Made by a program: the position numbers and the translations under genes
Part shown: positions 351-18,647 of the stretch, one piece after another
Numbering within the stretch: the stretch's first letter is position 1
Layout of the letters: each line of letters starts with the position of its first letter
Notes under the pieces: model-generated
Database searches by the model: none
The model's input: only the letters and a program-made list of their open reading frames with translations
What the model was told of the DNA's origin: nothing
IMG/VR virus record: IMGVR_UViG_3300032893_000002
Location: 1-46,667 of that record
Length of the DNA stretch: 46,667 bases
Strand: one strand, 5' to 3'
Source: a virus

Positions 351-391
351 AAATGGTAAAAAGGGGAGCACTCAGGAAAGGTGCTCCCCTA
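351..391 (-). terminator. rho-independent terminator (minus-strand transcript)
   Basis: Perfect 10-bp GC-rich stem AGGGGAGCAC(362-371)/GTGCTCCCCT(381-390) with 9-nt loop; on the minus strand it is followed by TTTTTACCATTT; lies 20 nt downstream of the stop of the 412..924 gene. Confidence 0.65.
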
Positions 392-411
392 TCTTCTGCC
401 GCGTTGTTGGA

Positions 412-1617: not shown

Positions 1618-1632
1618 TGTTTTTCTCCTTTG

Positions 1633-1905
1633 TTAGTCGGTGAAGTCTGAATTTCCGTTTGCGTACCAGCGTTCGATCTGTTCAATCGTTGGACAGTCTT
1701 CCTCTTCGTGAAAGAGCATGTCGCCTGATTCTTCCATTTCAGCGCAAGCGTCATGCGTCCATGATTCGTTCTGCTGATCGAACGTTCCATCTTCTTGTTT
1801 CCATGCTCCTGTTATTCCGGCAATTTTACCGGATTCAACAAAGCGATGGATAGTTAACAACACCTTGTCATCATCAACATACTTCCGTTCAGCTGATTTG
1901 ATCAC
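1633..1905 (-). CDS. hypothetical protein (90 aa)
   Basis: ATG ORF, GGAG-type SD region upstream, tight packing. Confidence 0.45.
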   Translation of the reverse strand: MIKSAERKYVDDDKVLLTIHRFVESGKIAGITGAWKQEDGTFDQQNESWTHDACAEMEESGDMLFHEEEDCPTIEQIERWYANGNSDFTD

Positions 1906-1920
1906 TGTTGTTCTCCTTTG

Positions 1921-2541
1921 TTAGACATACAGCAGGGAATAGCCATTTCCGTCGAAATAGATATGAGCAGCTTCTTCCCAATAGTGATTACCCGGTCGAG
2001 GTGATCCTTTGTCAAATCCTTTCATCGCTTCCTCCAGTGTTAAGTAGTAATCGTAAACTCCATAACCAAGGGACAGAAGCTTTTCTGGCACGCTTGAATC
2101 ATCTTCAAGTTCTTGAACCACCGGTACGTATTCTTTTGTTCCTGTGTAGATATGCGCTTCGACTTCTCCAAAGATTGGATGTTCCCAGCGCTTTCCTTCG
2201 TATGTAGCTTCAAACTTAGTACGAAGGAAAAAGTCTACTGCAGTATTCGGTTTTGTTTTCATTGTTTTTTCGATTAGCGTTGTTTCTTTTGGAAATGAAA
2301 TGATTCTGAATGGTCCTCTGGGTGGAGCATAATCATCCATCATTTCGAATTCAAGTCCTGGATGAATCTTCTCCAACGCTTCGAGCGCAGGCCGTAGATC
2401 ATCTGTGCATCCGGAATTGCCGTCGTGAAAGTTTACCCATCCGTTTGCGTCCAATGATTCGGACATTTTATCTGGCCAGTCATCCGAATCGATGTCTAAG
2501 CCATGAGCCTTTGACCATTCTACAGCTGTTGTATATTTCAT
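1921..2541 (-). CDS. hypothetical protein (about 206 aa)
   Basis: Track ORF 1921..2619 trimmed to MKYTTAVEW... start at 2541 with GGAGAGTAATA SD; stop of the upstream gene abuts it. Confidence 0.5.
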   Translation of the reverse strand: MKYTTAVEWSKAHGLDIDSDDWPDKMSESLDANGWVNFHDGNSGCTDDLRPALEALEKIHPGLEFEMMDDYAPPRGPFRIISFPKETTLIEKTMKTKPNTAVDFFLRTKFEATYEGKRWEHPIFGEVEAHIYTGTKEYVPVVQELEDDSSVPEKLLSLGYGVYDYYLTLEEAMKGFDKGSPRPGNHYWEEAAHIYFDGNGYSLLYV

Positions 2542-2543
2542 TA

Positions 2544-2942
2544 TTACTCTCCATTCTCCACAATGCTGATTGCATCGTTGTATGCAACTGCCGCAGCACG
2601 GTGCTGATCGACAGTCCATCCAGGATGCAGTTGGTTTGAGCTTGAGCCATTCGCATATGCCTCAGCAATATCCTTCAGCTTATGCAATTGCTCCAAGACT
2701 ATGTTCTTGATAAACTCGGCAACTCCAATCTTGTAGACGATCTTGCCTGGATATTTGTCTCGAAGCTGTTCCATTTGCAAGTCGACTACGCCGTACGCCC
2801 AGTCGTTGCTGATAAACAATCCGACGTCTTCCACAAAGATGATAGCGCGGAATGGATCCCGCGCGTTAGAAAGACGTCCGCGATCCTGCGCTAGCAGGTT
2901 CTGAGTGTCTGAAAGAGCTTGCATTAGTTGATCTTTAGTCAT
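2544..2942 (-). CDS. hypothetical protein (132 aa)
   Basis: Track ORF 2544..3083 trimmed to MTKDQLMQAL... start at 2942 with GGAGAGGATAAC SD; avoids overlap with 2944..3177. Confidence 0.5.
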   Translation of the reverse strand: MTKDQLMQALSDTQNLLAQDRGRLSNARDPFRAIIFVEDVGLFISNDWAYGVVDLQMEQLRDKYPGKIVYKIGVAEFIKNIVLEQLHKLKDIAEAYANGSSSNQLHPGWTVDQHRAAAVAYNDAISIVENGE

Positions 2943-2943
2943 G

Positions 2944-3177
2944 TTATCCTCTCCTTGATACATAGGTTGAAAGTAGGTATTGGCACCGATTGATAGCCTT
3001 AACTCGTTCATCGAGTTTCGGGTTGATTGGAGGCGAATGCTTAATCGCTTTCCTCCAATAGTGCAATTCGTCTTCTGCATCACAAAGGTTGTCCCAAATC
3101 AAAGCTAGTGACAATCCAAGCTCATTAGCTTCGTTTTGGAGCTGCTCGAACTCCTTGTCAGTTACCTTTTGCATCAT
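2944..3177 (-). CDS. hypothetical protein (77 aa)
   Basis: ATG ORF, stop/start junction with downstream gene. Confidence 0.45.
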   Translation of the reverse strand: MMQKVTDKEFEQLQNEANELGLSLALIWDNLCDAEDELHYWRKAIKHSPPINPKLDERVKAINRCQYLLSTYVSRRG

Positions 3178-3240
3178 TGTTATTCTCCTTAAAGAAAGTT
3201 AAGGGAGGATGCTTTCCTGTTACATCCTCCCGATTGGTTG

Positions 3241-3528
3241 TTAGATGATCGGATCATCACAAATCATCGATCCATATCGTCCGCGAAGTTCTCTTCCAAG
3301 ACGGTGTTCAATATCTTCTAGAGATTTTCCTTCAACAATTTCATGCTCATTCACATGTTCTTGGAATTCTTCTTTGACGAATCCCTCTGTGATAAGCAGT
3401 TGAAGTTCTTCATACGTTACATTGACGTGCAGCATTGTTGTTGTTTTCACTTTCTTCGGTCCAAACTCCGCAGGGTAGATGTCGTAATATACTCTGTATT
3501 GTTCAGGCATTGTTGTTCTCCTTTGCAT
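3241..3528 (-). CDS. hypothetical protein (95 aa)
   Basis: ATG ORF with GGAGAACAACA SD-like sequence. Confidence 0.45.
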   Translation of the reverse strand: MQRRTTMPEQYRVYYDIYPAEFGPKKVKTTTMLHVNVTYEELQLLITEGFVKEEFQEHVNEHEIVEGKSLEDIEHRLGRELRGRYGSMICDDPII

Positions 3529-3688
3529 CCATGATGTTGAGTGTAAATACTTTCATCCAAGTTAATCCATCTTTGTGATACTGCTTTACTTCCGCCTGCG
3601 CATTTGCATACTCAAGGTATGCACAGTTGGAAGACATTGGCTCAGGACCATGCGTTCCTTGCATGGCTACGATGAAGATCTCTTTCAT
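3503..3688 (-). CDS. hypothetical protein (61 aa)
   Basis: ATG ORF overlapping neighbours by a few nt (operon-style coupling). Confidence 0.35.
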   Translation of the reverse strand: MKEIFIVAMQGTHGPEPMSSNCAYLEYANAQAEVKQYHKDGLTWMKVFTLNIMDAKENNNA

Positions 3689-4122
3689 TGTTGTTCTCCT
3701 TTTAGCGTATTCGGAGTTACACGCTTAGTTTCTGTGCATGGTTTCGCATAGCGTGGACGCCTCTTCTGTGGATTGGAATAGTCCCGCTTTCTGGTTCCAT
3801 CTAGATTCTCCCAATACAGAGGATACAATCCGAGATGTTGTCCAAATCTTCCAACAGGAATATGTCCTCCGCAGTGATTGCAGATTGCATATGTTCTGTG
3901 GAAGCGTCCAGTCGATTTTGCTTCTTCTCTGCTGATGACATAGACCCAAGTATCGCCCAGTAGCTTCTTAGGAACAGCAGTTACTGGAAGCTTCTTGGGT
4001 AAGCCCATTGCTTGTTTGATGTGATGTTCTTGAGCAATGCCGCGATGCCGATTGTCTTGATCGCCTTCGAAGCATAGCCGCAGGTCTTTTCCGATTGTGT
4101 ACTTATCCCAATTGATTGACAT
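3685..4122 (-). CDS. putative HNH-like / zinc-binding nuclease (145 aa)
   Basis: His/Asn-rich segment DNRHRGIAQEHHIK plus CNHCGGH cysteine/histidine cluster; weak resemblance to HNH motif only. Confidence 0.3.
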   Translation of the reverse strand: MSINWDKYTIGKDLRLCFEGDQDNRHRGIAQEHHIKQAMGLPKKLPVTAVPKKLLGDTWVYVISREEAKSTGRFHRTYAICNHCGGHIPVGRFGQHLGLYPLYWENLDGTRKRDYSNPQKRRPRYAKPCTETKRVTPNTLKGEQQ

Positions 4123-4133
4123 TGTTATCTCCT

Positions 4134-4565
4134 TTAGATTGTGAACTCGTCGTTCGGAAACTGATTCAGTTCTTGTTGAACTTCGTGAAGATGCAGTTGA
4201 CGTTCTTCTCCTACTTCATTCAATATATCTAGAATGAATTGAACGTTTCCTGCTTTTGTTTGAATGGTACGGAGACGAACGTTCGTAAACCATTGCTCCG
4301 TTCCGCGAGGTATCTTGCTCGCATCTCCTTGTAGATCATTATCTCTGATGTGAATTCTGAATCCTCCATCTGCTTCTTCTACTCTGTATCCATCTGTTTG
4401 TCCATGCTTCATGAACAAGACATGTGGATTACCTTCATACTTCCACGGTGAATGAGCGTTAGGCTTTGGTATCTTCATCTGGAGTGCTCCATCCTTTCCT
4501 TTGATATTCGTTTTCGAGAAGAATTTGATCTCTGATAGCATCCCAGTCTTTTGGATTCTTCTCAA
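4134..4565 (-). CDS. hypothetical protein (start uncertain, up to 143 aa)
   Basis: ATG ORF; internal start MKIPKP... at 4478 has AAAGGATGGAG SD and may be the true start. Confidence 0.45.
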   Translation of the reverse strand: MRRIQKTGMLSEIKFFSKTNIKGKDGALQMKIPKPNAHSPWKYEGNPHVLFMKHGQTDGYRVEEADGGFRIHIRDNDLQGDASKIPRGTEQWFTNVRLRTIQTKAGNVQFILDILNEVGEERQLHLHEVQQELNQFPNDEFTI

Positions 4566-4625
4566 GTTGTTGTTTTGTTTCTGCCCACCAGCGGTCGAGA
4601 GTTTCTTTGGGTATTTCGTGATAAG

Positions 4626-4838
4626 TCATATTTCTTCTCTCTTTGTTTCTGCCAGTGACATCATTCTGGCTGGTAGCTGTTCTGCTGTACAGATATTGCC
4701 TTTGGAGTCTACTATGAAAGAGACTCCTCCGACAGAATCTGGACTGAATTGGACAAGGATTAATTCACATACCCTGTCCGCTTTCGTTCCATACATCTTC
4801 TCGAGTTTGAGCAAACGTGCTTTCTGTGCAAGTGTCAC
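4626..4838 (-). CDS. hypothetical protein (70 aa)
   Basis: ATG ORF; its ATG overlaps the stop of the 4838..5017 mini-gene. Confidence 0.45.
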   Translation of the reverse strand: MTLAQKARLLKLEKMYGTKADRVCELILVQFSPDSVGGVSFIVDSKGNICTAEQLPARMMSLAETKREEI

Positions 4839-5017
4839 TATTCAACCTCCCAAGGTTCGAACACACGTGGTTCATCTGGAATTGGTACGCTTGTGCCTCC
4901 TACAACATCGAAGGGCTTTCCGCATGCGTTACACTTCCAGCTCTGTCCATATCCAGGAGCTCCGTACTCTCCTTGATACTCAGTATTGGTGCTTTTGCAG
5001 TATGCGCATTCTTTCAT
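4838..5017 (-). CDS. small zinc-ribbon-like protein (59 aa, below 60-aa track cutoff)
   Basis: Hand translation MKECAYCKSTNTEYQGEYGAPGYGQSWKCNACGKPF...; CxxC..CxxC; GGAGGACTAACA SD; fills an otherwise unexplained gap. Confidence 0.4.
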   Translation of the reverse strand: MKECAYCKSTNTEYQGEYGAPGYGQSWKCNACGKPFDVVGGTSVPIPDEPRVFEPWEVE

Positions 5018-5019
5018 TG

Positions 5020-5187
5020 TTAGTCCTCCTTCCGTCTCTCGACGATTTGTTGTGATGGTTTCAGTCTAATTACTTTCCGATGACTGTAGCCGCTCTTCCT
5101 GTTACGGGAGCTGAAACGAATTCCAGTTCCTTTACATTCGCCGCAGCCTCGTCCCATACCAAAACACTTACCACACTGTCGTTTCAT
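5020..5187 (-). CDS. small Cys-rich protein (55 aa, below track cutoff)
   Basis: Hand translation MKRQCGKCFGMGRGCGECKGTGIRF...; TAAAGGAGGTCCT SD; stop overlaps SD of the next mini-gene. Confidence 0.35.
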   Translation of the reverse strand: MKRQCGKCFGMGRGCGECKGTGIRFSSRNRKSGYSHRKVIRLKPSQQIVERRKED

Positions 5188-5197
5188 AGGACCTCCT

Positions 5198-5530
5198 TTA
5201 CTTTCCGATTTGCGCCCAGGCGTCGGATGTGTAATGTTCGTTGAGATAGTCTACGATCTCGATCAGCCGTTCGTAGTAAGCTTTGTAGTTCGGAGAGTGT
5301 TTGTCTTCAGGTTCTTGTGTGTACTCGACAAATTGAGCTCTGGTCTGCTCCATTGTCTTTCCAATTGCCAAACGGAAGCCGATTGACTCGTACCACTCGT
5401 AATAATATCTTCCGCCAAGTGGCTCCGGTTCGACTCCAAAGTGTTTGCAGATCTCTTCGTCAATTTCTACGAAGCTGACTGGACCAGCTTTAAGATTGGA
5501 CTTCCGGGTAAGCTGAAAGTAATTGGGCAT
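5198..5530 (-). CDS. hypothetical protein (110 aa)
   Basis: Track ORF 5198..5578 trimmed to MPNYFQL... with AAAAGGAGAATAAGCAA SD. Confidence 0.5.
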   Translation of the reverse strand: MPNYFQLTRKSNLKAGPVSFVEIDEEICKHFGVEPEPLGGRYYYEWYESIGFRLAIGKTMEQTRAQFVEYTQEPEDKHSPNYKAYYERLIEIVDYLNEHYTSDAWAQIGK

Positions 5531-5730
5531 TTGCTTATTCTCCTTTTGGATGATACTATGGTATAGCCCCGCGCCCAACTATGCGTTAGACGCGGGACTA
5601 TTAAGGTTTAACTAGCAGGTAATTAGCTTTGGACGATCCCGGATCGTTCTGCGTTTGAGATGTCATCGACAATCATTGTGTACTTGTCCCAACGAATGTT
5701 ATCGATCTTAACTCCTCCCTGATTGATTAA

Positions 5731-6228
5731 CTACTGTTGCTGTTGCATCTTCGGTTGCGTCTCGTCGATTGCCTTTTGGAGCATATCAGCAAGACTTCCT
5801 TGTTCCTTTGCTTTCTGTTCTTTCTCTTTCATTTCGTCTTTCGTTGAACGAACCCGTTCCTTCTTGGGTGGAGCAGGAGGGACGTTCTTCTCGACGACGA
5901 CTTCTTCCTTTCCGACGCCAGCTTTCTTTGCGTCTCGACCGACTTGCTTTGCCAAGAGCTGATCTGCTTCCAAGGCCCATTCGAAAGCAGACTTCTTCGA
6001 TTCATCGTAGGTGCGAACCCAGATGACGATTCCGCCTTGCTTTCCAACAGCAATCTCGGGCCACTCCAGCGGTCCATGTCCTTGAAGAATCACCTTGCCG
6101 TCCCGTTCGCTCTGATCGAACGTCACATCCGGACGCAGTTCTTGCATCTTAGCCAGGAACTTCGCGACCATCGTGGTCTGCTTGGTTGCGATCACAGCGA
6201 CTTGGGTAGCAGTTTGATTGTTCGTCAT
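5731..6228 (-). CDS. hypothetical protein, paralog of 412..924 product
   Basis: Track ORF 5731..6294 trimmed to MTNNQTATQ... with TAAGGAGGATAAT SD; shared G(K/Q)xGIVI motif; Lys/Glu-rich C-terminus. Confidence 0.55.
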   Translation of the reverse strand: MTNNQTATQVAVIATKQTTMVAKFLAKMQELRPDVTFDQSERDGKVILQGHGPLEWPEIAVGKQGGIVIWVRTYDESKKSAFEWALEADQLLAKQVGRDAKKAGVGKEEVVVEKNVPPAPPKKERVRSTKDEMKEKEQKAKEQGSLADMLQKAIDETQPKMQQQQ

Positions 6229-6294
6229 ATTATCCTCCTTAAGGATAAAGGTTAGAGTTGCGTTGATGGTTGGGTTGCGAGAAACTTTTTGCAA

Positions 6295-6537
6295 TCAGAG
6301 AAGCAAGATTGGATGGCCGAGAATTTCTTCAGCCTGCGCAATCCTATCCTCTAGATCCTTCGCTCCGAAGACCCAGTCAAGAAGTTTTGCACTTGTCTCT
6401 GTTCTTTCGGTTACTGATGCTGTGAACAGATGTCGCTCAGTCTGTTTACGAAAGCTGTCCACGACAGAAGAAAAAGCAGCTTTTGCTTTTTCTTCAGTTT
6501 CAGCATCAAACTGGCATTCAATTACGAAGTGTTTCAT
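6295..6537 (-). CDS. hypothetical protein (80 aa)
   Basis: Trimmed to MKHFVIECQ... with AAAAGGAGAATCAAT SD. Confidence 0.45.
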   Translation of the reverse strand: MKHFVIECQFDAETEEKAKAAFSSVVDSFRKQTERHLFTASVTERTETSAKLLDWVFGAKDLEDRIAQAEEILGHPILLL

Positions 6538-6680
6538 ATTGATTCTCCTTTTTCTGGTTAGAGTTGCGTTGATGTTAGGTATTGGGTCGCTCGCCCTTTC
6601 GGGATTCACTCTTATACCTTTAGAAGCCGAGTTCTTTCAGCTTCTCGACAGCTACGGAACAGATAGCTGCGTTCAGCATG

Positions 6681-6833
6681 TTAGTCTCCTTGCTTAGTGA
6701 GTTGTTCGTACTGCTGTTCTAGTTGAGCAAACTTGGTTTCTAGCATGCGCTTCAAATACTTGTCCTTACAGCGTTTGATTTGTATTTGAAGTACTTCTGC
6801 ATGCGTGAGCATATCTTCGCGTGCTTTATCCAT
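6681..6833 (-). CDS. hypothetical protein (50 aa)
   Basis: Trimmed to MDKAREDML... with AGAAAGGAGCTGT SD; coiled-coil-like. Confidence 0.35.
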   Translation of the reverse strand: MDKAREDMLTHAEVLQIQIKRCKDKYLKRMLETKFAQLEQQYEQLTKQGD

Positions 6834-6879
6834 ACAGCTCCTTTCTCTGCGTGGTAAGTATGCGCAGCCCGCTGTTTTG

Positions 6880-7086
6880 TTAGAACCGCCAGACTGCTTT
6901 GACGTTATCCGGCAATGGTTCCGTCTTCCTGACACGGACCGATGCCGGCAAGTCACTTGTCATTCCTGCCAAAGGTTTGACATTTGTTACGCGTGACTGG
7001 CAAGTTACGATTGGTTTGTGTGTTGACTTTTTCAAGCTTGCAACTGAGCGAGCAAGCTCTCGGTAGATTTCCTCTTGTTTGAACAT
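6880..7086 (-). CDS. hypothetical protein (68 aa)
   Basis: ATG ORF, AAGGGACAATCTGT SD-like. Confidence 0.3.
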   Translation of the reverse strand: MFKQEEIYRELARSVASLKKSTHKPIVTCQSRVTNVKPLAGMTSDLPASVRVRKTEPLPDNVKAVWRF

Positions 7087-7199
7087 ACAGATTGTCCCTT
7101 CAGGTTGGTTAAGTTAGAGGAGATGTAGGTGGAGGACTAGCCACACCATAACTCTGACAATGGCTAATCCTAAGCAGAACAGTACGTATCTGATTGGTG

Positions 7200-7430
7200 T
7201 CATCTCACATCCATGATCAGCATTGCGCCGTCTCGGGTGTAAGCAGCCATCCACATCAGAGTGCCAATGTATCCAAGCCTGTGTCGTACAAGCCTGAATA
7301 TTTGGTACAGTACGTACCACTGTTCACGTGTGAACTGCGCGTGATTCATTTGTCTTTGTCCTTTCTTTTGTAACGTTGAAGTAAGGCCATGATGCCGCAG
7401 AATATCATCATGGCCATTGATACGTAGCAT
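7200..7430 (-). CDS. hypothetical protein (start ambiguous)
   Basis: Track ORF 7200..7544 overlaps 7451..7753 by about 90 nt, so an internal start (MLRING at 7430 or MNHAQ at 7349) is more likely; weak SD. Confidence 0.25.
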   Translation of the reverse strand: MLRINGHDDILRHHGLTSTLQKKGQRQMNHAQFTREQWYVLYQIFRLVRHRLGYIGTLMWMAAYTRDGAMLIMDVR

Positions 7431-7450
7431 CCGAACAGCATGGTTCTCAA

Positions 7451-7753
7451 CTACTTCTTCCCACGCAAGACCAGTTGCGCCGGAGCGTACTTGTTCATGT
7501 TCAAGATCTGTTGAGATCCGGGAAGGTAGTGATACATTGCACATCGAAGAGCCTTGTTATATGGTTCTCCATTCGTTACCTGATCCACAACGTTCTCTTC
7601 GAACTTCCGGATGCGTTCCAGAGCCTTCTCTTTGAACTCCACAGCGAGCATTCGGCATACTAGCCCGTAGGCTTTGTCTGCCGCCTCGATGGAAGACATG
7701 TTGGTGAGAAACTCCTTGTTCATGCGAAGGAGCACTTGTGTTGTTGCGTTCAT
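7451..7753 (-). CDS. hypothetical protein (100 aa)
   Basis: ATG ORF with AGAAGAGGATAATAACA SD. Confidence 0.5.
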   Translation of the reverse strand: MNATTQVLLRMNKEFLTNMSSIEAADKAYGLVCRMLAVEFKEKALERIRKFEENVVDQVTNGEPYNKALRCAMYHYLPGSQQILNMNKYAPAQLVLRGKK

Positions 7754-7977
7754 TGTTATTATCCTCTTCTGAGTCGTTTCCTGAGCGACTCTGTTAGTTG
7801 TTATTGGAAGTCAACGTACATCTTGGCAATTTCCACGATCTCGTGTTTGCCAATACGTTTGTTGACAGTCTTCTCACGGAACGCATTTCTTTGTTCCGTA
7901 AGACCCTCACTCTGAAGACGATCCGAGATATGTCGGATGACCTCTTCTGCTTACAGGTTGACTAGCTACACTGCCAA

Positions 7978-8145
7978 TCAGATCTCGCAAGCTATCTTAC
8001 TCAGCAGCATGTGGTTATAGCACTTGCTCATCCACACAGGTACTTCGTGAATGAACGGATCAGCTGCATTACGTAACTCATGCAGCAGCTTTGGATCGTC
8101 TGTCTCGATCACCAGAACGTTCCCTTCATCAAATGCAATTACCAT
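7978..8145 (-). CDS. hypothetical protein (55 aa)
   Basis: Trimmed to MVIAFDEG... with GGAGGTAGT SD. Confidence 0.45.
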   Translation of the reverse strand: MVIAFDEGNVLVIETDDPKLLHELRNAADPFIHEVPVWMSKCYNHMLLSKIACEI

Positions 8146-8146
8146 A

Positions 8147-8341
8147 CTACCTCCTTCCATTCCACCGCTCAGCGGTATTGTTGATTGAATCGTTAAGGAT
8201 TACAGCCGGAACGACATGAGCATCGTTAGGCCGTATGTCTACTACCTTTACAGTCTCAGCACCATCCTCATTCCAGTCTATACACACTAGACGGTATGAG
8301 CCATCAGGCGAGACTAGCACTGATACGTGATCTGCCATCAT
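8147..8341 (-). CDS. hypothetical protein (64 aa)
   Basis: ATG ORF, AAAGGGGGGATGT SD, 1-nt spacing to neighbours. Confidence 0.45.
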   Translation of the reverse strand: MMADHVSVLVSPDGSYRLVCIDWNEDGAETVKVVDIRPNDAHVVPAVILNDSINNTAERWNGRR

Positions 8342-8505
8342 ACATCCCCCTTTGCAATGTGCTTGTCAAACCACTGTTCGATCTTCCGTAGAGCAAGCTC
8401 CTTGTCTTGAAGACATAGCTTACCCTCCTGATAGCGGGGATTATCCGTTACCATGATATGCAGGCTTGGATAATCCCCACGGCTTTGATACAGAGCGATT
8501 GTCAT
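8338..8505 (-). CDS. hypothetical protein (55 aa)
   Basis: Trimmed to MTIALYQ... with CTAAGGAGGCTGTA SD. Confidence 0.45.
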   Translation of the reverse strand: MTIALYQSRGDYPSLHIMVTDNPRYQEGKLCLQDKELALRKIEQWFDKHIAKGDV

Positions 8506-8515
8506 TACAGCCTCC

Positions 8516-8680
8516 TTAGAGTTGAGGATTGGTTGTGAAGATCCACACAAAGCCCATGATCAATACTGTTAGGCTTAGTGCACGTTGTACGCTCTTTGTC
8601 TCGCCTTCAGCAGCAATGGTCATTAGGCTAGGAGCGCCACAGATCAGGAACAGCACTGCGATCGTTACTTGTAGTGACAT
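8516..8680 (-). CDS. small membrane protein (54 aa, below track cutoff)
   Basis: Hand translation MSLQVTIAVLFLICGAPSLMTIAAEGETKSVQRALSLTVLIMGFVWIF...; two hydrophobic helices; GGAGGAAGAAAATAGT SD. Confidence 0.4.
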   Translation of the reverse strand: MSLQVTIAVLFLICGAPSLMTIAAEGETKSVQRALSLTVLIMGFVWIFTTNPQL

Positions 8681-8681
8681 A

Positions 8682-8810
8682 CTATTTTCTTCCTCCGATC
8701 CTTAGGATTAACCCGATACCAGTTAGTAGTAACCCGAAGCACACTGCACCGAACAGTGCAGTGGCTACTAGTTGTTTCAACGCATCTGCTGCGATTTGAA
8801 GCTCTTGCAT
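8682..8810 (-). CDS. small membrane protein (42 aa)
   Basis: Trimmed to MQELQIAADALKQLVATALFGAVCFGLLLTGIGLILRIGGRK with CGAGGAGGAAGT SD; single TM helix; first gene of the minus-strand operon. Confidence 0.4.
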   Translation of the reverse strand: MQELQIAADALKQLVATALFGAVCFGLLLTGIGLILRIGGRK

Positions 8811-9010
8811 ACTTCCTCCTCGTTGTGTGATTTCTACTACTTGTATCACCATACTATGTATGATACCAATTAAGCCCATAGTCATTATACATGCTGTGTT
8901 AACATGCTATTGGTGTAGAACCAAAAGTTATTTTTAAATTACCCGCACTGCCTTTCTTAACTATGGAGAAGTTTTTAAATTTCTACAACTGGTAAATTGT
9001 ATAATATAAT
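8811..9010. promoter_or_regulatory. divergent promoter region between the two arms
   Basis: 200-bp AT-rich gap between the first minus-strand gene and first plus-strand gene; contains TTGTATAATATAAT directly abutting ATG 9011 and several TATAAT-like hexamers on both strands. Confidence 0.5.
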
Positions 9011-9877
9011 ATGACTAGAATTTTCAAACTACTGACTCTCCTTTACAATTTCTTGTGTTCCATACTAAACTTCAGCACTTCTTCCAACGCTTGTACTAAT
9101 ACTCCCGTTTCTACTAACACTTCTGTTCCAACAGAGGCTATAAAAGACAATACTCTGCCTAATCCTATATTACATGCAGAACCAAAAATTATAGAATTGC
9201 AAGAACATGAAATACAGAAAGTACTTCGTATTGAAATTGTTCCGGATAATGCGCATATTGAGCAGAATATTAAAAAGTCCGTGGTACCGCAGAAAGAGAA
9301 GATAGCAAGTCTTATTCAGAGAAAATTTCGGCCTATTGCCTCGTGGACATATGAGGTACAAGAAGAAATTTTGCAGCATCGTGACAAATGTTGGCGTATG
9401 ACTGGCGTTAGTGAGATTGGAGGCACGCCAATGATTGGGAATTTATCTGTAATACGCATGCTGTATAAAATGTATTATGGCTGTGATGCAGACGAATGCC
9501 TTAAGGCGGGCTGCGGACTACAAGGATTTATACGTGTAGGTTGTGTTAATTTCTTTAAGCACGATAGAAATTCGGGGCACATAGAATTGCGTGCAGATCG
9601 GAAACGTAAATTAATTAGTTTACGGCCCATTGCCGCAGCTAAGAGAACGATTGGCAAAGAGTATCCTTCTTTATATAAAGAAGCGCTTAATGATGAAGAA
9701 ACTGCTATCCTCGCCGATATACAGAAAATTTTTAATAAACTGGAAAAATCTGACTGCTATCTTGGGAAGAAAATTCCGCTCGACTGCATCATTGCGCGAA
9801 GCATTTATAAAAATAAACTAGGAATCATCGCAATATTAAAGCACGATAAAAGACTCGCTGCGCGTCTTCAATACTGA
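9011..9877 (+). CDS. hypothetical protein (288 aa) encoded in AT-rich island
   Basis: Long ATG ORF, about 30% GC, hydrophobic N-terminus (possible signal/lipoprotein-like), Lys/Ile/Asn-rich; no motif recognised. Confidence 0.5.
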   Translation: MTRIFKLLTLLYNFLCSILNFSTSSNACTNTPVSTNTSVPTEAIKDNTLPNPILHAEPKIIELQEHEIQKVLRIEIVPDNAHIEQNIKKSVVPQKEKIASLIQRKFRPIASWTYEVQEEILQHRDKCWRMTGVSEIGGTPMIGNLSVIRMLYKMYYGCDADECLKAGCGLQGFIRVGCVNFFKHDRNSGHIELRADRKRKLISLRPIAAAKRTIGKEYPSLYKEALNDEETAILADIQKIFNKLEKSDCYLGKKIPLDCIIARSIYKNKLGIIAILKHDKRLAARLQY

Positions 9878-10275
9878 GTAATAAAATTTCGGTTTCACAT
9901 TCTTCTTTTTCAAAAAGTGGGTACTTCGAGTTTTTATAAAAATTTCTATAACTCGGTAATAGTATAGGTTAATGATTCAGACCAAAAGGTCTTATGCTCG
10001 TTCTCCTCTGCACTGGACAGAGCTTCATCAATGAATAATCTTAATACATTATTCTGGCATATAAAACTGTGATCAAGTCTACTGCTATCTAATAGCCAAG
10101 ACCCATGCACTAGATGAGGATAAACCAGCCCATACGGCACTCGTTCACCTAAGAGAGTACCTACATGGCTTGAGGGCACTTCGCTGCATCATCAAGTGTT
10201 CCTTATGCCACCAACATCTATTCAACGTCTTCTAACATAGATAACTAATATAGAAGAGATAATATAGAGGTAGAT

Positions 10276-10482
10276 ATGTTTAATTTACTATCATGGATAT
10301 CAGCTTCTTTAACAGTTATCGGAATGTATCTAGTAGGTAGGAAGCTATGGTATGGATGGATTGTTAATCTGTTCATTTTAGCTTATATCAATTATACATT
10401 CCGATTGTATGGCTTCCTAGTATTGAATGGATTTTTGTTTATCCTGTTCATGAAGAATGCTGTTCAATGGAGATACAAATGA
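10276..10482 (+). CDS. small membrane protein (68 aa, 2 predicted TM helices)
   Basis: ATG ORF with AGAGGTAGAT SD; strongly hydrophobic sequence. Confidence 0.4.
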   Translation: MFNLLSWISASLTVIGMYLVGRKLWYGWIVNLFILAYINYTFRLYGFLVLNGFLFILFMKNAVQWRYK

Positions 10483-10751
10483 ATATGTTCTATATACCTG
10501 AGGATGAGATGCAATTTCAATTTCCTATCTTTCGTCGTGATTGTCATCCTGTTCATTTAACTGATGATACAGTTTTATCTTTTATCACTGGTGTTCGTGT
10601 ACTATATAATGCTATGACATATCTGTTTGAGCGGTATGATGATCGTTCAGTTCTCAACGTCTTTAAACAGGATATTGGTGATTACTACGCACTCCGCATA
10701 TTAGCTGCCTTACATTTAATCGTATCACAGGGTAGGGAAGAGCGGGTTTAA
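10467..10751 (+). CDS. hypothetical protein (94 aa)
   Basis: ATG ORF overlapping previous by 16 nt. Confidence 0.4.
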   Translation: MEIQMNMFYIPEDEMQFQFPIFRRDCHPVHLTDDTVLSFITGVRVLYNAMTYLFERYDDRSVLNVFKQDIGDYYALRILAALHLIVSQGREERV

Positions 10752-10806
10752 TGCGCAATCAAAATCGTTAATGCGCAATCAAAAGCAGGATATGCGCAAT
10801 CAAAAA
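10749..10806. repeat. three direct repeats of ATGCGCAATCAAAA at 20-21 bp spacing
   Basis: Seen directly: copies at 10751-10764, 10771-10784, 10792-10805, each preceded by TA/TT; immediately upstream of the CGGTAATAGTATAATTATATG motif. Confidence 0.85.
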
Positions 10807-10819
10807 GAGCGATATAGTG

Positions 10820-10840
10820 CGGTAATAGTATAATTATATG
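10820..10840 (+). promoter_or_regulatory. conserved motif CGGTAATAGTATAATTATATG (putative promoter, extended -10 like)
   Basis: Near-identical to 13719-13740 (CGGTAATTAGTATAATTATATAT) and similar to 9954-9974 (CGGTAATAGTATAGGTTAATG), 8991-9010, 37851-37863. Confidence 0.5.
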
Positions 10841-10860
10841 TCCAAAGGTTATACCTGGCA

Positions 10861-11091
10861 ATGCCAAAATTATATTCTTTCTTTGCTCACTTCAATCGTT
10901 GTAATATGCAACGTGGACTAAATAATGTCTGGACCGTCCACTTTCGAGGTGTTTGTTATCAAGTTGAAGGGATAGACTTTCGTGTTCCTACAAAAACTAG
11001 GTATAATAAAAGCGGTCGCCAGCCTAGAGCAACCATACGTGGACGTGCTAGATTTATTACGATACATAACAACTTTGCTGTTGTTAGATAG
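10861..11091 (+). CDS. hypothetical protein (76 aa)
   Basis: ATG ORF downstream of the putative promoter; poor SD. Confidence 0.3.
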   Translation: MPKLYSFFAHFNRCNMQRGLNNVWTVHFRGVCYQVEGIDFRVPTKTRYNKSGRQPRATIRGRARFITIHNNFAVVR

Positions 11092-11099
11092 GAGATAAT

Positions 11100-11315
11100 A
11101 TGCGTGAAACACTTGTAAAATGTGATAAGTGTGGACAATCGGTTACGTTCCATGGACCAACACCTCCTTCATTCAGACTCTTTAGAACGGAATCGGCTGG
11201 GCCGGAAGGGCCAACTGAACATTTCTTCGACTGTGATCTTTGTGTAAATTGTATCGTTGCTGCGTTCAACTTGATAGGAGAAGAGAACTTCAAAATATTT
11301 CTAAATAAGAGGTAG
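11100..11315 (+). CDS. zinc-ribbon protein (71 aa)
   Basis: CDKCGQ...CDLCVNC pattern; ATAGGAGATAAT SD. Confidence 0.5.
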   Translation: MRETLVKCDKCGQSVTFHGPTPPSFRLFRTESAGPEGPTEHFFDCDLCVNCIVAAFNLIGEENFKIFLNKR

Positions 11316-11325
11316 TCTTTTTTAT

Positions 11326-11739
11326 ATGGCTTCCAAACTAGAATATTTAGATAAACCCGTTCGTACAACACATGGTATTGAAACGATTACTCAGGAAGAA
11401 CTAACGTTACTGTATAAACTCCGTTATATCGATAACGATTGTAAAAATAAGAGAAATAAGCAAGCTCGCACGTTAACGCCAGAAGAGAGACAGACGAAGA
11501 CTGCTATTCAGCGAAAAAAGAATCGTATCAAATATGCGACAGATCGGCAAAAATTAACAGAAGAAGATTTTGAGCGTAAGCTGCAGAATATAGAACGATG
11601 CCATAAGCTTCTATCTAAATACTGGAATGATAGATTAAGTAAAGATGCGAAATTAAAATTCGCTAAGCAAATTAAAAGAAAGAAGGAAATTCAGTCTGCT
11701 GTAGAGGCATATAGGAAGATAACAGGAGGCCGGCCATAG
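11326..11739 (+). CDS. basic hypothetical protein (137 aa)
   Basis: ATG ORF, Lys/Arg-rich (nucleic-acid binding plausible). Confidence 0.5.
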   Translation: MASKLEYLDKPVRTTHGIETITQEELTLLYKLRYIDNDCKNKRNKQARTLTPEERQTKTAIQRKKNRIKYATDRQKLTEEDFERKLQNIERCHKLLSKYWNDRLSKDAKLKFAKQIKRKKEIQSAVEAYRKITGGRP

Positions 11740-11930
11740 CATATACAGGTGAATGCCAGGCGTGTAAGAATACAAAAGACAAGCAGTTAGAAGTTGTAGG
11801 CGCGCAAACAAAACTTGACTACTGCGATTCTCACCTAATCGAGCTTCGTGAATATACGAAAGGCTGGATGGCAGAAATGCAAGAGTTCCTCGTAGAGATT
11901 GAAAAAGAGATTGTGAATAGAGGGTTATAA
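11736..11930 (+). CDS. coding-like ORF with no ATG/GTG/TTG start (possible AUA start or decayed gene)
   Basis: 62 stop-free codons in an AT-rich region translating to ...ECQACKNTKDKQLEVVGAQTKLDYCDSHLIELREYTKGWMAEMQEFLVEIEKEIVNRGL; AGGAGG(11724-11729)-6 nt-ATA(11736); absent from the track because it lacks a canonical start. Confidence 0.3.
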   Translation: MAYTGECQACKNTKDKQLEVVGAQTKLDYCDSHLIELREYTKGWMAEMQEFLVEIEKEIVNRGL

Positions 11931-12051
11931 GTTTTTTGCTATTCCTGGACAAAACCCAGGCCGCTCAACGGGACTAAGTTACAGAGAACCGTTCACCTAA
12001 GTGACGAGAGGTAAGCTACCTGTAACGGACTGAAATTAGCAAATTTTAAAG

Positions 12052-12351
12052 GTGAGTATGGAAGAAAAAGCTAAGTGTGAAATATGCGGTGAACCAATGC
12101 CGGAGGGAGAGGAATCGTTTAAGTATCATGGGTATAGCGGACCATGTCCTAAACCCCCATTACCCAAATCTACAGAAATGCCGGATAGTGATAGAAAGTG
12201 GGTCGATGCATTAAAACCATATATCGGTGGCGGAATTGTGCCGTTCTATACGCTTCCGGATGGATCAGTTGATGCACAGAAGACGATAGACTCCTTTTGT
12301 ATGTTGAATGATGTGAATAAGAGAGTATATCCAAAAAGGAAGAATAAGTAG
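12052..12351 (+). CDS. hypothetical protein (99 aa)
   Basis: ATG ORF; alternative start MEEKAK at 12058 after AAAGGTGAGT. Confidence 0.45.
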   Translation: MSMEEKAKCEICGEPMPEGEESFKYHGYSGPCPKPPLPKSTEMPDSDRKWVDALKPYIGGGIVPFYTLPDGSVDAQKTIDSFCMLNDVNKRVYPKRKNK

Positions 12352-12452
12352 TAAAGAAGTAAGCAGTGGTGGTAGTTGGTTTAACGATATTTTAGTTCTT
12401 GCGACTTGAAACTCGCTCCGCTCGTGAAGATAAAACTTGAAGAGGTAATAAT

Positions 12453-12791
12453 ATGTATTGTACAAATGATTTAGAAGAATCTCTAAAGAGAGTATCGCTT
12501 CGTTCTGAACCTGTATACGTATTAAGTGCGTGGGGAAAAGCTGAAAGCCCAGACGTTTGTTGTCATATGGATTGGAGCGGAGGTTTTGTTCTTCTATTAG
12601 CAGATGGAGGTTTCGCTTATTTAGAAGGATGGTGTGATTATACTGGTTGGGGATGTCAGGACGGCGCTGAAATTAGATATGCAGATAGCCTAGCAGGATT
12701 AAAGCTTAGAAAAGATGTGAAGTGGGACAAACTTCCTCAAGATTTGAATAAATGGCTTTCATCAGGACGGAAACCTTGGGAGGAAAGATAA
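12453..12791 (+). CDS. hypothetical protein (112 aa)
   Basis: ATG ORF with GAAGAGGTAATAAT SD. Confidence 0.45.
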   Translation: MYCTNDLEESLKRVSLRSEPVYVLSAWGKAESPDVCCHMDWSGGFVLLLADGGFAYLEGWCDYTGWGCQDGAEIRYADSLAGLKLRKDVKWDKLPQDLNKWLSSGRKPWEER

Positions 12792-13211
12792 TTGGATAAA
12801 GTAGTTGACAGAATTTATGTAGGCGATAATCTAGATCCTCATGAATTACGCGTTAGTAATTCGGAGCAGATTGGAGCAATATTGAATGTATGCGAAACAT
12901 TTGATCCTGCTCTAGACGTTGCATCTTTGCATATGCCATTTGCCGATTGCGCTCCAATTCCTACATACGAATTTCAAACTTGTATGTCGTGGCTTGAGCA
13001 ACAGTATCGACGATCAGACAGAAATATTTTTATTCATTGCCATTTAGGGATAAGTAGAAGTCCAACGATATGTGCTTCATTTATGTTTTTACAGAAGATT
13101 TCACCGACAATACAAGAAGCATTAGCTACGATTAAAGCAGCTAGACCAATCATAAATCCTCATCCTTTAACACTTCAGTCAGCTATTACGTATTTAGAGG
13201 AGATGAAATGA
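12792..13211 (+). CDS. CX5R-type (dual-specificity / protein-tyrosine family) phosphatase
   Basis: P-loop IHCHLGISRSPT = HC(X5)R(S/T) signature plus upstream Asp (PFADCAP); TTG start after GGGAGGAAAGATAA SD; size typical of minimal DUSP or RNA/polynucleotide phosphatases. Confidence 0.65.
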   Translation: MDKVVDRIYVGDNLDPHELRVSNSEQIGAILNVCETFDPALDVASLHMPFADCAPIPTYEFQTCMSWLEQQYRRSDRNIFIHCHLGISRSPTICASFMFLQKISPTIQEALATIKAARPIINPHPLTLQSAITYLEEMK

Positions 13212-13714
13212 AAACAGATGGACTCTGCGGAATTGAATGGTTTAAAGCAAATAAAGAACTTCAAAACGCGTCAAGAGAAAAGTGGGATGTTAGATTTTTG
13301 GAATTGGCTAAGTTTATTGCCAGTTGGTCTAAAGATCCTTCTACTAAGACTGGAGCCGTAATTGTTCGGCCTAATAAATCGGTTGCTTCTGTTGGGTTTA
13401 ACGGCTTCCCTACTAAGTTAATTGATTCCGAAAAAGATTATTCTAATCGAGATGTAAAGTATAGTAAGATCATTCATTGTGAAATGAATGCGCTTCTATT
13501 TGCGCGTGAACAAGTAACAGGATATACACTCTATACCTATCCTCTTGCTTCTTGCGAACGTTGTGCAGTTCATATGATTCAAGCCGGAATTACAAGATGT
13601 GTATTTCCAAAGATTCCACACGATCAACAAGAACGCTGGCAAGATTCAGTAAATAGGACAAAGACGTATTTAACAGAAGCAGAAGTTGACTGGCGTGAAG
13701 TAGATTTTGAATAA
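13208..13714 (+). CDS. dCMP (deoxycytidylate) deaminase
   Basis: Zinc-binding motifs HCEMNAL (H-x-E) and SCERC (C-x-x-C) at canonical spacing; length and layout of ComEB/dCMP deaminase family. Confidence 0.8.
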   Translation: MKTDGLCGIEWFKANKELQNASREKWDVRFLELAKFIASWSKDPSTKTGAVIVRPNKSVASVGFNGFPTKLIDSEKDYSNRDVKYSKIIHCEMNALLFAREQVTGYTLYTYPLASCERCAVHMIQAGITRCVFPKIPHDQQERWQDSVNRTKTYLTEAEVDWREVDFE

Positions 13715-13718: not shown

Positions 13719-13740
13719 GGTAATTAGTATAATTATATAT
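13719..13740 (+). promoter_or_regulatory. conserved motif CGGTAATTAGTATAATTATATAT (putative promoter)
   Basis: Second copy of the 10820-10840 motif; TATAAT at 13728-13733, ATG of a small ORF 5 nt downstream. Confidence 0.5.
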
Positions 13741-13900
13741 GGCAAAGATTTTTAAGCTTGTACTACCAAACGAAAAAGGTATTTTCGTAATTCCAGCGGA
13801 ATACAGTGGCTGCAAGTTTATAATTAGAGATCATAGATGTTTTGTTATTCTAGAAGAAGGTAAACAAGAAATTCTTGAAAATGTACAGGAGCTTGCATGA
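13739..13900 (+). CDS. small ORF (53 aa, below track cutoff)
   Basis: Hand translation MAKIFKLVLPNEKGIFVIPAEYSGCKFIIRDHRCFVILEEGKQEILENVQELA; stop overlaps ATG of the next gene (ATGA); no SD, so leaderless or near-leaderless if real. Confidence 0.3.
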   Translation: MAKIFKLVLPNEKGIFVIPAEYSGCKFIIRDHRCFVILEEGKQEILENVQELA

Positions 13901-14728: not shown

Positions 14729-15490
14729 ATGCACAAACCTCTAGGCATTAAAAATTACGGAAGCATCGGCCATCTACCTCAGAGCCGTCTGGGACCAGGA
14801 GATCATAAGGTTCCAGACGGACAGGCCGCTATATGTATTGAACAAACAAGAGATGAGTATGATAGAGTAATTGTTACAGAAAAATTAGACGGTTCGAATT
14901 GTGGTGTAGCTTTACTTGATGGACAGATTTTAGCTTTAGGTAGAGCAGGATATTTAGCACAATCCTCTCCTTACGAACAGCATCAACTATTTGCCTACTG
15001 GGTTAGACAAAATGAAGCAAGTTTTCGTAAAATTCTACGAGAAGGCGAACGATGCGTCGGCGAATGGCTGGCGCAAGCACATGGAACTAAATACGACTTG
15101 CCTTGTCCGCCGTTCTGCGTTTTTGATATTATGAAAGGACGTGAGCGCGCTCCGTGGAGCGAAGTATTAGAACGTTGCTATCCTTTAGTTAATACTGTTC
15201 CAGTATTACATGATGGAGGAGCCGTAGCGATAGAAACAATTATGCATGATTTAAATGCTGTTCCAAGGGCGTATGGACAATGCGATGAAAAAAGATTTTA
15301 TGGTTGGTTTGGTGCGATGGAAGAAGTAGAAGGAGCTGTTTGGCGAGTTGAAAGAAAAGGAAAATTTGACTTTATGGCGAAGTATGTCAATCCAGATAAG
15401 CTTGATGGGAAGTACTTAGAAAAAGTAAGCGGACAGCCGCCTATATGGAATTGGAGACCAAATGCTGAAGATAGTGTTATCAATTTATAA
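14729..15490 (+). CDS. ATP-dependent polynucleotide ligase-like nucleotidyltransferase (RNA ligase-like, 253 aa)
   Basis: Covalent nucleotidyltransferase motifs in order: I VTEKLDGSN (KxDG), III CVGEWL, IV EGAVWRVERKG, V KYV; size fits small RNA-ligase family (PF09414-like) rather than DNA ligase. Confidence 0.55.
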   Translation: MHKPLGIKNYGSIGHLPQSRLGPGDHKVPDGQAAICIEQTRDEYDRVIVTEKLDGSNCGVALLDGQILALGRAGYLAQSSPYEQHQLFAYWVRQNEASFRKILREGERCVGEWLAQAHGTKYDLPCPPFCVFDIMKGRERAPWSEVLERCYPLVNTVPVLHDGGAVAIETIMHDLNAVPRAYGQCDEKRFYGWFGAMEEVEGAVWRVERKGKFDFMAKYVNPDKLDGKYLEKVSGQPPIWNWRPNAEDSVINL

Positions 15491-16156: not shown

Positions 16157-16516
16157 ATGGAGAAAATAGCATTAATGGACTTTAATTTCTATCATGAAGA
16201 AGCATTAAAATCGGCTGTTTATCCGAATATTGGTAATAATCCGCATTATCCGCTGATGGGTTTGGCAGGAGAAGTTGGTGAAGTAGCAGAGAAGATTAAG
16301 AAACTATGGCGCGATAAGAACCAATCTAAAGGTGCAGAATTCTCTGCAGAAGATAAAGAAGCTATAGCACTAGAACTTGGCGATGTACTTTGGTATGTAT
16401 CAGCTCTGGCTAGAGAAATAGGTTTGCCATTAGAAAAAGTAGCATCTCTAAATTTGGCAAAGTTGGGTTCTCGCAAACAGAGAAATAAAGTACATGGTTC
16501 GGGGGATAATAGATAG
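16157..16516 (+). CDS. mazG: MazG-type nucleoside triphosphate pyrophosphohydrolase
   Basis: Canonical MazG motifs LAGEVGEVAEKIKK (E-x-x-E-x-x-E) and ELGDVLWYVSALA. Confidence 0.8.
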   Translation: MEKIALMDFNFYHEEALKSAVYPNIGNNPHYPLMGLAGEVGEVAEKIKKLWRDKNQSKGAEFSAEDKEAIALELGDVLWYVSALAREIGLPLEKVASLNLAKLGSRKQRNKVHGSGDNR

Positions 16517-18116: not shown

Positions 18117-18647
18117 ATGGCCGAAAGAATGCAATTGCCCACTACGCGTCAAAGTATTGTTCATCATTTTGCTGTTGGCGAATATGAAGGTTATTTAACA
18201 GTTGGTTTGTATGAAACGGGACTTCCAGGCGAAGTATTTGTGAAGATGGTAAATAAAGATACAACAGTCTCAGGCTTTATGGATAGTTTTGGATTAGCCG
18301 TGTCACTTGCACTTCAGCATGGTGTTCCATTAAAATTACTTTGCGACAAGTTTAGCTATATTCAATTTGATCCAAAGGGAGAAACAGCGAATAAGAAACT
18401 TCCGACGGCGAAATCTCTTATAGATTATTTATTCAGATGGATGGATTTATACTTTATTAAAGGCGATGTCTCTGCGTTGGAAAATTATATTAAACCGGAA
18501 GTAAAGAAATCAATCAAGCACGTCGTTACAAAGTCTTCTGGAATAGGATCGGATGCGCCTCCCTGTAGACAGTGTGGAGAATTGATGCAGCCAAATGGAA
18601 GTTGTCATGTTTGTAAATACTGCGGAGAAACTAGTGGTTGTTCATAA
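18117..18647 (+). CDS. hypothetical protein with C-terminal zinc ribbon (176 aa)
   Basis: C-terminal CRQCG...CHVCKYCG; no other motif. Confidence 0.45.
   Translation: MAERMQLPTTRQSIVHHFAVGEYEGYLTVGLYETGLPGEVFVKMVNKDTTVSGFMDSFGLAVSLALQHGVPLKLLCDKFSYIQFDPKGETANKKLPTAKSLIDYLFRWMDLYFIKGDVSALENYIKPEVKKSIKHVVTKSSGIGSDAPPCRQCGELMQPNGSCHVCKYCGETSGCS

Follow-up and report, generated by a model that had tools for sequence, protein, structure and literature searches.

The DNA described here, hereafter 'the window', is a stretch of 46,667 nucleotides (nt) from a virus (IMG/VR record IMGVR_UViG_3300032893_000002), with a leftward arm (positions 1–9000) and a rightward arm (9011 to the end). Our subject is the segment 9011–10850, at the head of the rightward arm. 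A preliminary description had taken this segment for an extremely AT-rich island and, on account of its composition, for an acquired 'moron'. We conclude, instead, that it is probably where the rightward early genes of an uncultured ~180-kb phage begin, at their promoter-proximal end, and not a foreign AT-rich island. The size of the genome follows from three proteins: one from the leftward block of genes occurs on a contig of 180,030 nt, and a record of equal length carries the products of two open reading frames (ORFs), ORF94 and ORF137, indicating that the window is part of a phage genome of ~180 kb.

For comparison we used contigs L003 (to which L018 is identical), L002 (from another sample), L044 (which extends the window leftward) and L047 (which carries a second haplotype of the leftward block); the diverged haplotypes at hand were two. 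Homologues of ORF288, the first gene of the segment, are designated P0001 (a variant) and P0002 (distant). Codon-level composition was calculated from a simple set of non-overlapping genes, and tetranucleotide profiles were normalized for mononucleotide content. A DNA search with 8500–12500 against 50,697 phage records returned no match. The features discussed are these, with protein lengths in amino acids (aa) and GC content at third codon positions abbreviated GC3:

1–8885 (minus strand), and ~190 nt further beyond the start of the window (L044 1–6603): leftward block of ~24 small ORFan genes, GC 46%, GC3 47%.
8886–9010: divergent intergenic spacer, 125 nt, 28.8% GC; TGTATAAT elements in both orientations stand a few nt from the first start codon on either side.
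8977–9010 (plus strand): P1, promoter-like motif AAATTTCTACAACTGGTAAATTGTATAAT, ahead of ORF288.
9011–9877 (plus strand): ORF288, 288 aa, a near-ORFan, basic and rich in Cys and His.
9940–9973 (plus strand): P2, promoter-like motif CCCGGTAATAGTATAGGTTA, also the putative recombination joint.
9974–10275 (plus strand): non-coding, without a credible ORF; probably a 5′ leader to the ORF68–ORF94 unit.
10276–10482 (plus strand): ORF68, 68 aa, 31.9% GC, a predicted membrane protein with three hydrophobic segments, of a short phage 'PnuC-like' family.
10467–10751 (plus strand): ORF94, 94 aa, an ORFan.
10748–10805 (plus strand): triple direct repeat, three copies of TTAATGCGCAATCAAAA with the 14-mer ATGCGCAATCAAAA at 20–21 nt spacing, directly upstream of P3.
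10813–10834 (plus strand): P3, promoter-like motif GCGGTAATAGTATAAT, heading ORF 10861–11091 and the genes downstream.
13719–13733 (plus strand): P4, promoter-like motif CGGTAATTAGTATAAT; the ATG of ORF 13739–13900 follows 5 nt later.
L003 1052–1943, also in L018 and in the tail of L002: polymorphic cassette, 892 bp, 36.9% GC, with ORFans of 105 aa and 167 aa.

The GC content of 9011–10850, by sliding profile and by direct count, is 37.2%, and its non-overlapping 60-mers average 37.3% (range 28–52%). The value of about 32% reported earlier was an artefact of sampling; only the 125-nt spacer and ORF68 come close to it. The rightward arm as a whole has 39.5% GC (40.6% from 30 to 46.7 kb), and segments of the same size taken from it average 39.6%, with a standard deviation (SD) of 2.2%. 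This places 9011–10850 at the 10th percentile, 1.1 SD below the arm mean, and since more AT-rich 500-nt intervals occur in five places (at 19.2 kb, with 31.4% GC, and at 14.25, 40.3, 43.55 and 33.4 kb), the segment is no outlier. The GC3 values of its three genes (0.34, 0.35 and 0.30; together 33%) compare with an arm mean of 29% and occupy the 51st–90th percentile of the rightward arm, while the tetranucleotide signature of the chunk 9001–12000 correlates at 0.37 with the rightward arm versus 0.25 with the leftward. The lower bulk GC stems from codon positions 1 and 2, the proteins being rich in Ile, Leu, Lys, Phe and Tyr, and from AT-rich regulatory DNA. With GC3 above the arm mean, and an oligonucleotide signature of the rightward type, there is no compositional mark of foreignness: sliding GC, GC3 and k-mers alike fall within the variation of the rightward arm, and 9011–10850 is not compositionally foreign. 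Its low GC would be accounted for by the genome baseline (~38–39.5% GC; GC3 ~29%) together with regulatory DNA and Ile/Leu/Lys-rich proteins, and its island-like look would arise by contrast with the adjoining leftward block, ~9.1 kb of other composition.

The real compositional outlier is the GC-richer leftward block, and not the AT-rich side. The leftward arm has 46.0% GC, rather than the 'about 50%' first given to it, and the difference in bulk GC between the arms is 6.5 points. The earlier figure of 18 points is approached at GC3, where the gap is 17 points (46.7% leftward versus 29.3% rightward; Mann–Whitney p=2.5e-12). First codon positions differ as well (GC1 55.0% versus 49.2%; p=5e-6), and second positions do not (GC2 37.9% versus 40.1%; p=0.38). 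Tetranucleotide profiles correlate at 0.46–0.50 within arms, and at 0.29 between them. Contig L044, which reaches 1.6 kb past the left end of the window, reveals the far edge of the block. A hairpin terminator marks this edge, ~190 nt beyond the window start; a convergent rightward gene follows, and there GC returns to 38–39%. The block, then, is a ~9.1-kb tract of 46.2% GC between two baseline stretches of ~38–39%; with the baseline on both of its flanks, it is the block that is anomalous, and the 'AT-rich island' is the baseline resuming. Beyond the terminator, L044 carries a fifth copy of the promoter-like motif, in rightward orientation. Because the block sits between baseline stretches that use the same rightward motif, we regard it as most likely a separately evolved module, which would have entered the genome, or been maintained in it, before the two sampled haplotypes split. 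Relatives recognized by their structural genes (a 655-aa protein, 56–81% identity) range from 41 to 67% GC, so higher-GC donors exist in the group, none of them identified as the source. The mosaic origin proposed earlier is reasonable in light of the codon-level asymmetry of the arms; the anomalous part, however, is the leftward block.

The second haplotype of the block, on L047, is 91–97% identical to the first, has gene replacements of its own, and has 46.3% GC. A recent swap at the junction of the arms, which would have left an identical block in both haplotypes, is ruled out by these differences. At L047 2699–2875, an unrelated 60-aa gene takes the place of the 206-aa gene at 1922–2541 of the window, and two further segments have been exchanged, so gene replacement happens in the leftward block too. 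The proteins of the block match nothing in Pfam or PHROG, and searches for their relatives in IMG/VR and in a database of 5.8 billion clusters returned only self-matches. Two of its genes, 412–1020 and 5731–6294 (both minus strand), are paralogous (48% identity over 52 aa, E 8e-12), with the common motif WP[QE]I[SA][IV]GK..GIVI and no family hits; the former exceeds every other gene of the window in GC (57%, with a GC3 of 67%). To the left of the window, at ~6700–7300 of L044, a 151-aa gene and its surroundings contain many copies of GTACTAGTACTTT. The coding copies form STS-rich repeats, and two copies flank the promoter region of the gene.

The organization of 9011–10850 is set by a repeated motif, (C)GGTAA-N2-3-GTATAAT, found at 8991 (P1), 9955 (P2), 10821 (P3) and 13719 (P4). 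Exact hits to GGTAA-N2-3-GTATA number four, against ~0.12 expected; all are on the plus strand, all are intergenic, and all lie between 8991 and 13731. The motif contains a TATAAT −10 element, and P1 and P2 have 34 nt in common at 76% identity. The interval 8920–9030 (P1 and its flanks) is 100% identical in L003, while ORF288 has diverged by 6.6% at the nucleotide level. Variants of the motif, AAGTAATTGTATAAT, occur at 37852 and 38710 (plus strand), in the late region. The ATG of ORF288 comes 5 nt past the TATAAT of P1, with no Shine–Dalgarno sequence; P4 has the same spacing, and the first gene of the leftward block has one of 4 nt. So short a distance, with no ribosome-binding sequence, makes a leaderless mRNA plausible, and that of ORF288 may be of this kind. 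The promoter-like motifs and triple repeat that had been reported to flank these genes are indeed present. The 14-mer of the repeat has six matches at two mismatches or fewer, against 1.06 expected, and it is invariant in L003, where the spacers between the copies differ. An invariant 14-mer amid varying spacers constitutes a phylogenetic footprint of a candidate binding site, and the three repeats are probably sites for a regulator. A lone near-copy, ATGCGCAATTAAAA (one mismatch), at 24935–24948 (plus strand), inside a 978-aa replication-type gene, may reflect chance or a further binding site.

We picture the region as a series of short transcription units, each led by a copy of a phage-specific promoter-like motif. 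P1 would drive ORF288, possibly as a leaderless message; P2 would drive a constrained leader of 300 nt, and then the translationally coupled ORF68 and ORF94; P3, preceded by the three putative regulator-binding repeats, would drive the next genes; and P4 lies at 13.7 kb. Two other kinds of signal were considered and set aside. An antisense sigma-70-like site at 10861–10833 (11/12 matches) has a −35 hexamer that L003 does not conserve. The same contig speaks against leaderless mini-ORFs following P2 and P3: its P2 ATG is ACG, and its P3 mini-ORF is cut to seven codons.

P2 is also where the haplotypes differ in gene content. In L003, L018 and L002, the 892-bp cassette lies exactly between two copies of CCCGGTAATAGTATAGGTTA. 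It is absent from the window, which has a single, hybrid copy: the left flank is that of the first copy in L003, and the right flank that of the second. L002 has window-type alleles through 9887, and then the insert. The sites that tell the alleles apart are separated by 59 nt, within the 141-nt k-mer of the assembler, which makes this a real third haplotype; its combination of alleles establishes that the cassette is polymorphic in a nearly identical background. As judged from these sequences, the locus is a hotspot of accessory-gene turnover. The repeated promoter motifs would double as short stretches of homology at which recombination inserts or deletes cassettes, by analogy with the early promoter/stem–loop elements (PeSLs) of T4-type phages. 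Of the cassette products, the 105-aa protein is basic; the 167-aa protein is Cys-rich and weakly matches phrog_18426 (4.6e-4). ORF288, ORF68 and ORF94 behave differently: L003/L018, the only diverged relative available, keeps all three, ORF288 and ORF94 at 91–93% nucleotide identity. Loci found by way of an RNA-ligase homologue were tried as additional relatives, and were rejected as they have no other gene in common with the window.

Several considerations weigh against our reading of 9011–10850 as the start of an early region that turns over at its promoter repeats. Our view is confined to the window and to the contigs compared with it, within a genome of ~180 kb. No canonical −35 hexamer is recognizable 16–18 nt from the motifs, so promoter function, and the polymerase involved, are inferred only. 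A terminator scan of 8000–12500 found no site next to P1, P2 or P3, unlike PeSLs; the only hairpin after P2 is one of 5 bp (AGACC-AAAA-GGTCT). The turnover documented is a single indel event, and the diverged haplotypes number two. And since the second haplotype of the leftward block, at 91–97% identity, also has ~46% GC, the compositional difference is older than the split of the sampled strains, and acquisition of the block is not directly demonstrable. The GC3 gap might, alternatively, come from selection on the codon usage of a temporal class of genes. On this explanation, the leftward block would be such a class (immediate-early, for example) matched to the host tRNA pool, with the AT-rich remainder of the genome depending on phage functions or reflecting mutational AT pressure, and the asymmetry of the arms would not be a matter of mosaic ancestry. 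We consider this rather unlikely, for all that it would fit the concentration of the difference at GC3, with a part at GC1 and none at GC2, and the retention of ~46% GC by the block in both haplotypes. Phages of this size often carry tRNA genes, although the window itself has none. Selection on codons alone does not predict that the tetranucleotide signatures of the arms should differ too; GC3 is heterogeneous inside the block (0.34–0.67); structural relatives extend to high GC, so donors are available; and the rightward genes beside P1–P4 look early as well, yet are AT-rich.

ORF288 was correctly recognized as an ORF of 288 aa starting at 9011, and its differences from L003 (14/11/32 by codon position) mark it as protein-coding. 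Called Lys/Asn/Ile-rich before, it is rich in Ile (11.5%) and Lys (9.4%), and in Leu (10.1%), but Asn is only 5.2%. It is basic (K+R 44 versus D+E 31, net +13), with nine Cys and seven His. The hydrophobic N-terminus attributed to it is not apparent: no span of 19 residues in the N-terminal helix reaches a mean Kyte–Doolittle value of 1.5, and P0002 has no hydrophobic counterpart there, the alignment having a gap of 10 columns. A word-indexed search of 5.8 billion clusters found only P0001, a 91% variant. An exhaustive HMMER search of 1.84 billion representatives, standing for ~15 billion proteins, added one more, P0002 (30% identity, E 1.3e-10), making two homologue clusters in all. P0002 sits on an unrelated, phage-like contig of 52% GC that has no other gene in common with the window. 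In IMG/VR, where 25 structural relatives were found, there is no homologue, ORF288 being absent from the contigs that carry the structural module. Its distribution is patchy, and, as far as homologues and composition can tell, it is a lineage-specific accessory gene of long residence, composed like its surroundings. With two lineages among so many proteins, the family is among the rarest.

What ORF288 does is suggested, faintly, by its invariant core: C127-W-R-x-T-G, G138-x-P-x-I, I148-R, G167-C168-x-L-x-G and G177-C178-V-N-x-F-x-H184. This resembles the CWxWTG...CVNPxH type of HNH endonuclease. ORF288 might, then, be a free-standing, possibly degenerate, selfish gene of the HNH (His-Me finger) homing-endonuclease type, lodged after the first promoter of the rightward arm; a mobile gene of that sort would account for its turning up sporadically in two phage genomes with no relation to each other. 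The core, CWRxTG...IRxxY...GCxLxG...GCVNxFxH, aligns in register with the generic CWxWTG...HR...DHxCxN..CVNPxH (hhalign pairwise E 0.0046), but the reference is a generic consensus rather than a database entry, and the hhalign probability is only 7.6%. P0002 weakly matches phrog_826, 'HNH endonuclease' (E 0.031 and 0.083); ORF288 itself matches nothing in Pfam, NCBIfam, PDB or PADLOC, with no hit in the first three even at E 1–10, and tblastn of the core against phages gave chance-level hits at most. In favour of the idea, the protein is basic and has conserved Cys and His residues, and two other elements of the mobile kind occur in the same genome, a GIY-YIG endonuclease gene and a probable LAGLIDADG intein. 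Where the consensus has its catalytic His (DH), however, there stands Ala-Gly or Pro-Gly in the two branches of the family. Structure prediction does not help, since the AlphaFold2 model, from an alignment of three sequences, has a confidence score (pLDDT) of 38, too poor for a fold search. The homology searches have yielded one distant homologue and no family. We think a homing endonuclease unlikely.

Improbable, too, but worth stating, is a more elaborate proposal in two parts, both of which draw on weak hints and on two diverged sequences. ORF288 and its single distant homologue might represent a new protein family, expressed early by phages, with a His-Me-finger/HNH-like zinc scaffold that lacks the catalytic His: a putative DNA-binding regulator, or a host-takeover or anti-defence factor, which a leaderless transcript would supply before other products. 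The second part concerns the 300-nt leader that follows P2, which might be a new cis-regulatory element of RNA or DNA. This leader, 9974–10275, is 95.4% identical in L003, and its divergence of 4.6% falls short of the 13.4% seen at third codon positions of the adjoining genes (Fisher p=7e-5), which signifies that it is under constraint. A minus-strand ORF, 9946–10179, was rejected as a gene; its substitutions (4/5/3) are not biased by codon position, and most change the amino acid. The fold of the leader has a z-score of −2.1. A conserved RNA fold was rejected as unproven, because the favourable RNAalifold result was biased by construction, and an unbiased single-sequence test found that substitutions do not favour unpaired sites. 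The leader has no Rfam match; nothing in the whole window reaches the Rfam gathering threshold, nor does anything in 8800–11200 reach E<=1.

ORF68, the first gene behind this leader, had been termed a '2-TM mini-protein', and by hydropathy it has three hydrophobic segments. It matches phrog_2421, a family of unknown function (E 5.7e-5), and by tblastn it matches short actinophage proteins annotated as 'PnuC-like nicotinamide riboside transporter' (E 7e-4 to 8e-3). Against PF04973 (PnuC/NMN_transporter) it scores 13 bits, below the cut-off of 27.3, over profile positions 2–67 of 175, and so falls outside that family. Its counterpart in L003 differs by one insertion of three codons and two substitutions. 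The 94-aa ORF also exists as described. Within it, an ATG at 10479 overlaps the stop codon of ORF68 as ATGA, and gives a protein of 90 aa; variants called at 90 aa exist, and this ATG is likely the true start. Differences from L003 by codon position (3/2/19) bespeak purifying selection. No homologues were found for ORF94 among the phage records by tblastn, it has no family hits, and its AlphaFold2 model, from the single sequence, is unusable (pLDDT 55).

The original idea, that 9011–10850 is a recently acquired, AT-rich moron island with genes for superinfection exclusion, defence or anti-defence, we consider very improbable. It has in its favour that ORF288 and ORF94 are ORFans, the former patchy, that the units have promoter-like motifs of their own, that cassettes turn over at this locus, and that short membrane proteins, such as ORF68, are a common form of exclusion factor; the locus is indeed plastic. 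But the composition is ordinary, at 1.1 SD from the arm mean in GC, above that mean in GC3, and with an oligonucleotide signature of the rightward type; the diverged haplotype retains ORF288, ORF68 and ORF94 alike, under purifying selection; and no terminator bounds the segment. Nor does the defence or anti-defence candidacy find a counterpart among PADLOC models: searched against PADLOC-DB v2, neither ORF288, ORF68 and ORF94, nor the two cassette ORFs, nor three downstream ORFs had a significant hit, the best being Cas1_II (E 0.028, 11.7 bits).

Further along the rightward arm, the early region encodes proteins of the dual-specificity phosphatase, dCMP deaminase, RNA-ligase-like, MazG and TSCPD-domain kinds (12792–13714, 14729–15490, 16157–16516 and 18117–18647, plus strand), which indicate a module for nucleotide metabolism or host takeover. 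Two other genes are of the mobile type. The 221-aa ORF at 21821–22486 (plus strand), directly after a gene resembling the terminase small subunit, has an N-terminal GIY-YIG catalytic domain (4.4e-10), and is likely a free-standing homing endonuclease. The 978-aa ORF at 22972–25908 (plus strand) combines a LAGLIDADG_3 domain (7.7e-15, aa 304–387) with weak matches to Intein_splicing and, in PHROG, to primase-like families; it probably carries an intein.

Two more general points emerge. It was only next to a GC-richer block that a segment of baseline composition could pass for an AT-rich island, and this artefact of contrast argues that intragenomic anomalies should be judged against GC3, and against the DNA on both sides. 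And the cassette provides a clean case, in natural haplotypes and outside the T4 group, of a promoter-like repeat whose two copies exactly bracket a module that has been gained or lost.

Each main element has a likeness among known systems. Phage genomes such as lambda have GC-rich and AT-rich segments, and the window resembles them in its sharp, segment-wise difference in GC at the boundary of functional or transcriptional modules. It differs in that what deviates is 9 kb of ORFans, oppositely oriented, within a genome of ~180 kb; no donor lineage was identified. Morons of lambdoid phages, as Juhala et al. are said to have described them in 2000, are reportedly extra genes with a promoter and a terminator of their own, often deviant in composition. 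The likeness here lies in accessory genes with their own promoter-like element, at a place where the gene content of relatives varies. The 892-bp cassette, with its 105-aa and 167-aa genes, fits the pattern of presence or absence at a fixed site; ORF288, ORF68 and ORF94 are present in the relative at that position, have promoter-like motifs but no terminator, and are not distinct in nucleotide composition, either in GC3 or in oligonucleotide signature.

ORF68 resembles the first three helices of PnuC transporters, but at 68 aa with three membrane segments it is far from PnuC itself, which is ~24 kDa with nine predicted helices. In the phage system NARP3, NAD+ reconstitution depends on a PnuC-type transporter of full length with a NadR-like NMNAT/RNK enzyme next to it, the two forming an anti-defence pair (PMC13464706). 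ORF68 is too short for such a role, and Pfam finds no NadR, NMNAT or kinase domain in ORF94 or in 20 other rightward genes.

The closest parallel is with the PeSLs, which mediate the shuffling of cassettes in hyperplastic regions of T4-type phages (Arbiol et al. 2010, PMC2839356; Comeau et al. 2014, PMC4122927). The phage described here is not T4-like; its motif occurs in 4–5 copies, versus ~50 in RB49 and phi1, with homology at the joint of ~18–20 bp versus ~100 bp, and it has neither the stem–loop terminator nor a canonical −35 box. What the two have in common is a promoter-like motif repeated between the genes of an early region rich in ORFans, a cassette that brings its own copy of the motif, and an indel between close relatives that is bounded by two copies of the motif in the longer genome, and replaced by a single, chimeric copy in the shorter. 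A hyperplastic early region that shuffles at promoter repeats is a known type of process, seen here in a novel large phage, and the case supports the idea that regulatory repeats may be general points of shuffling in large phage genomes.

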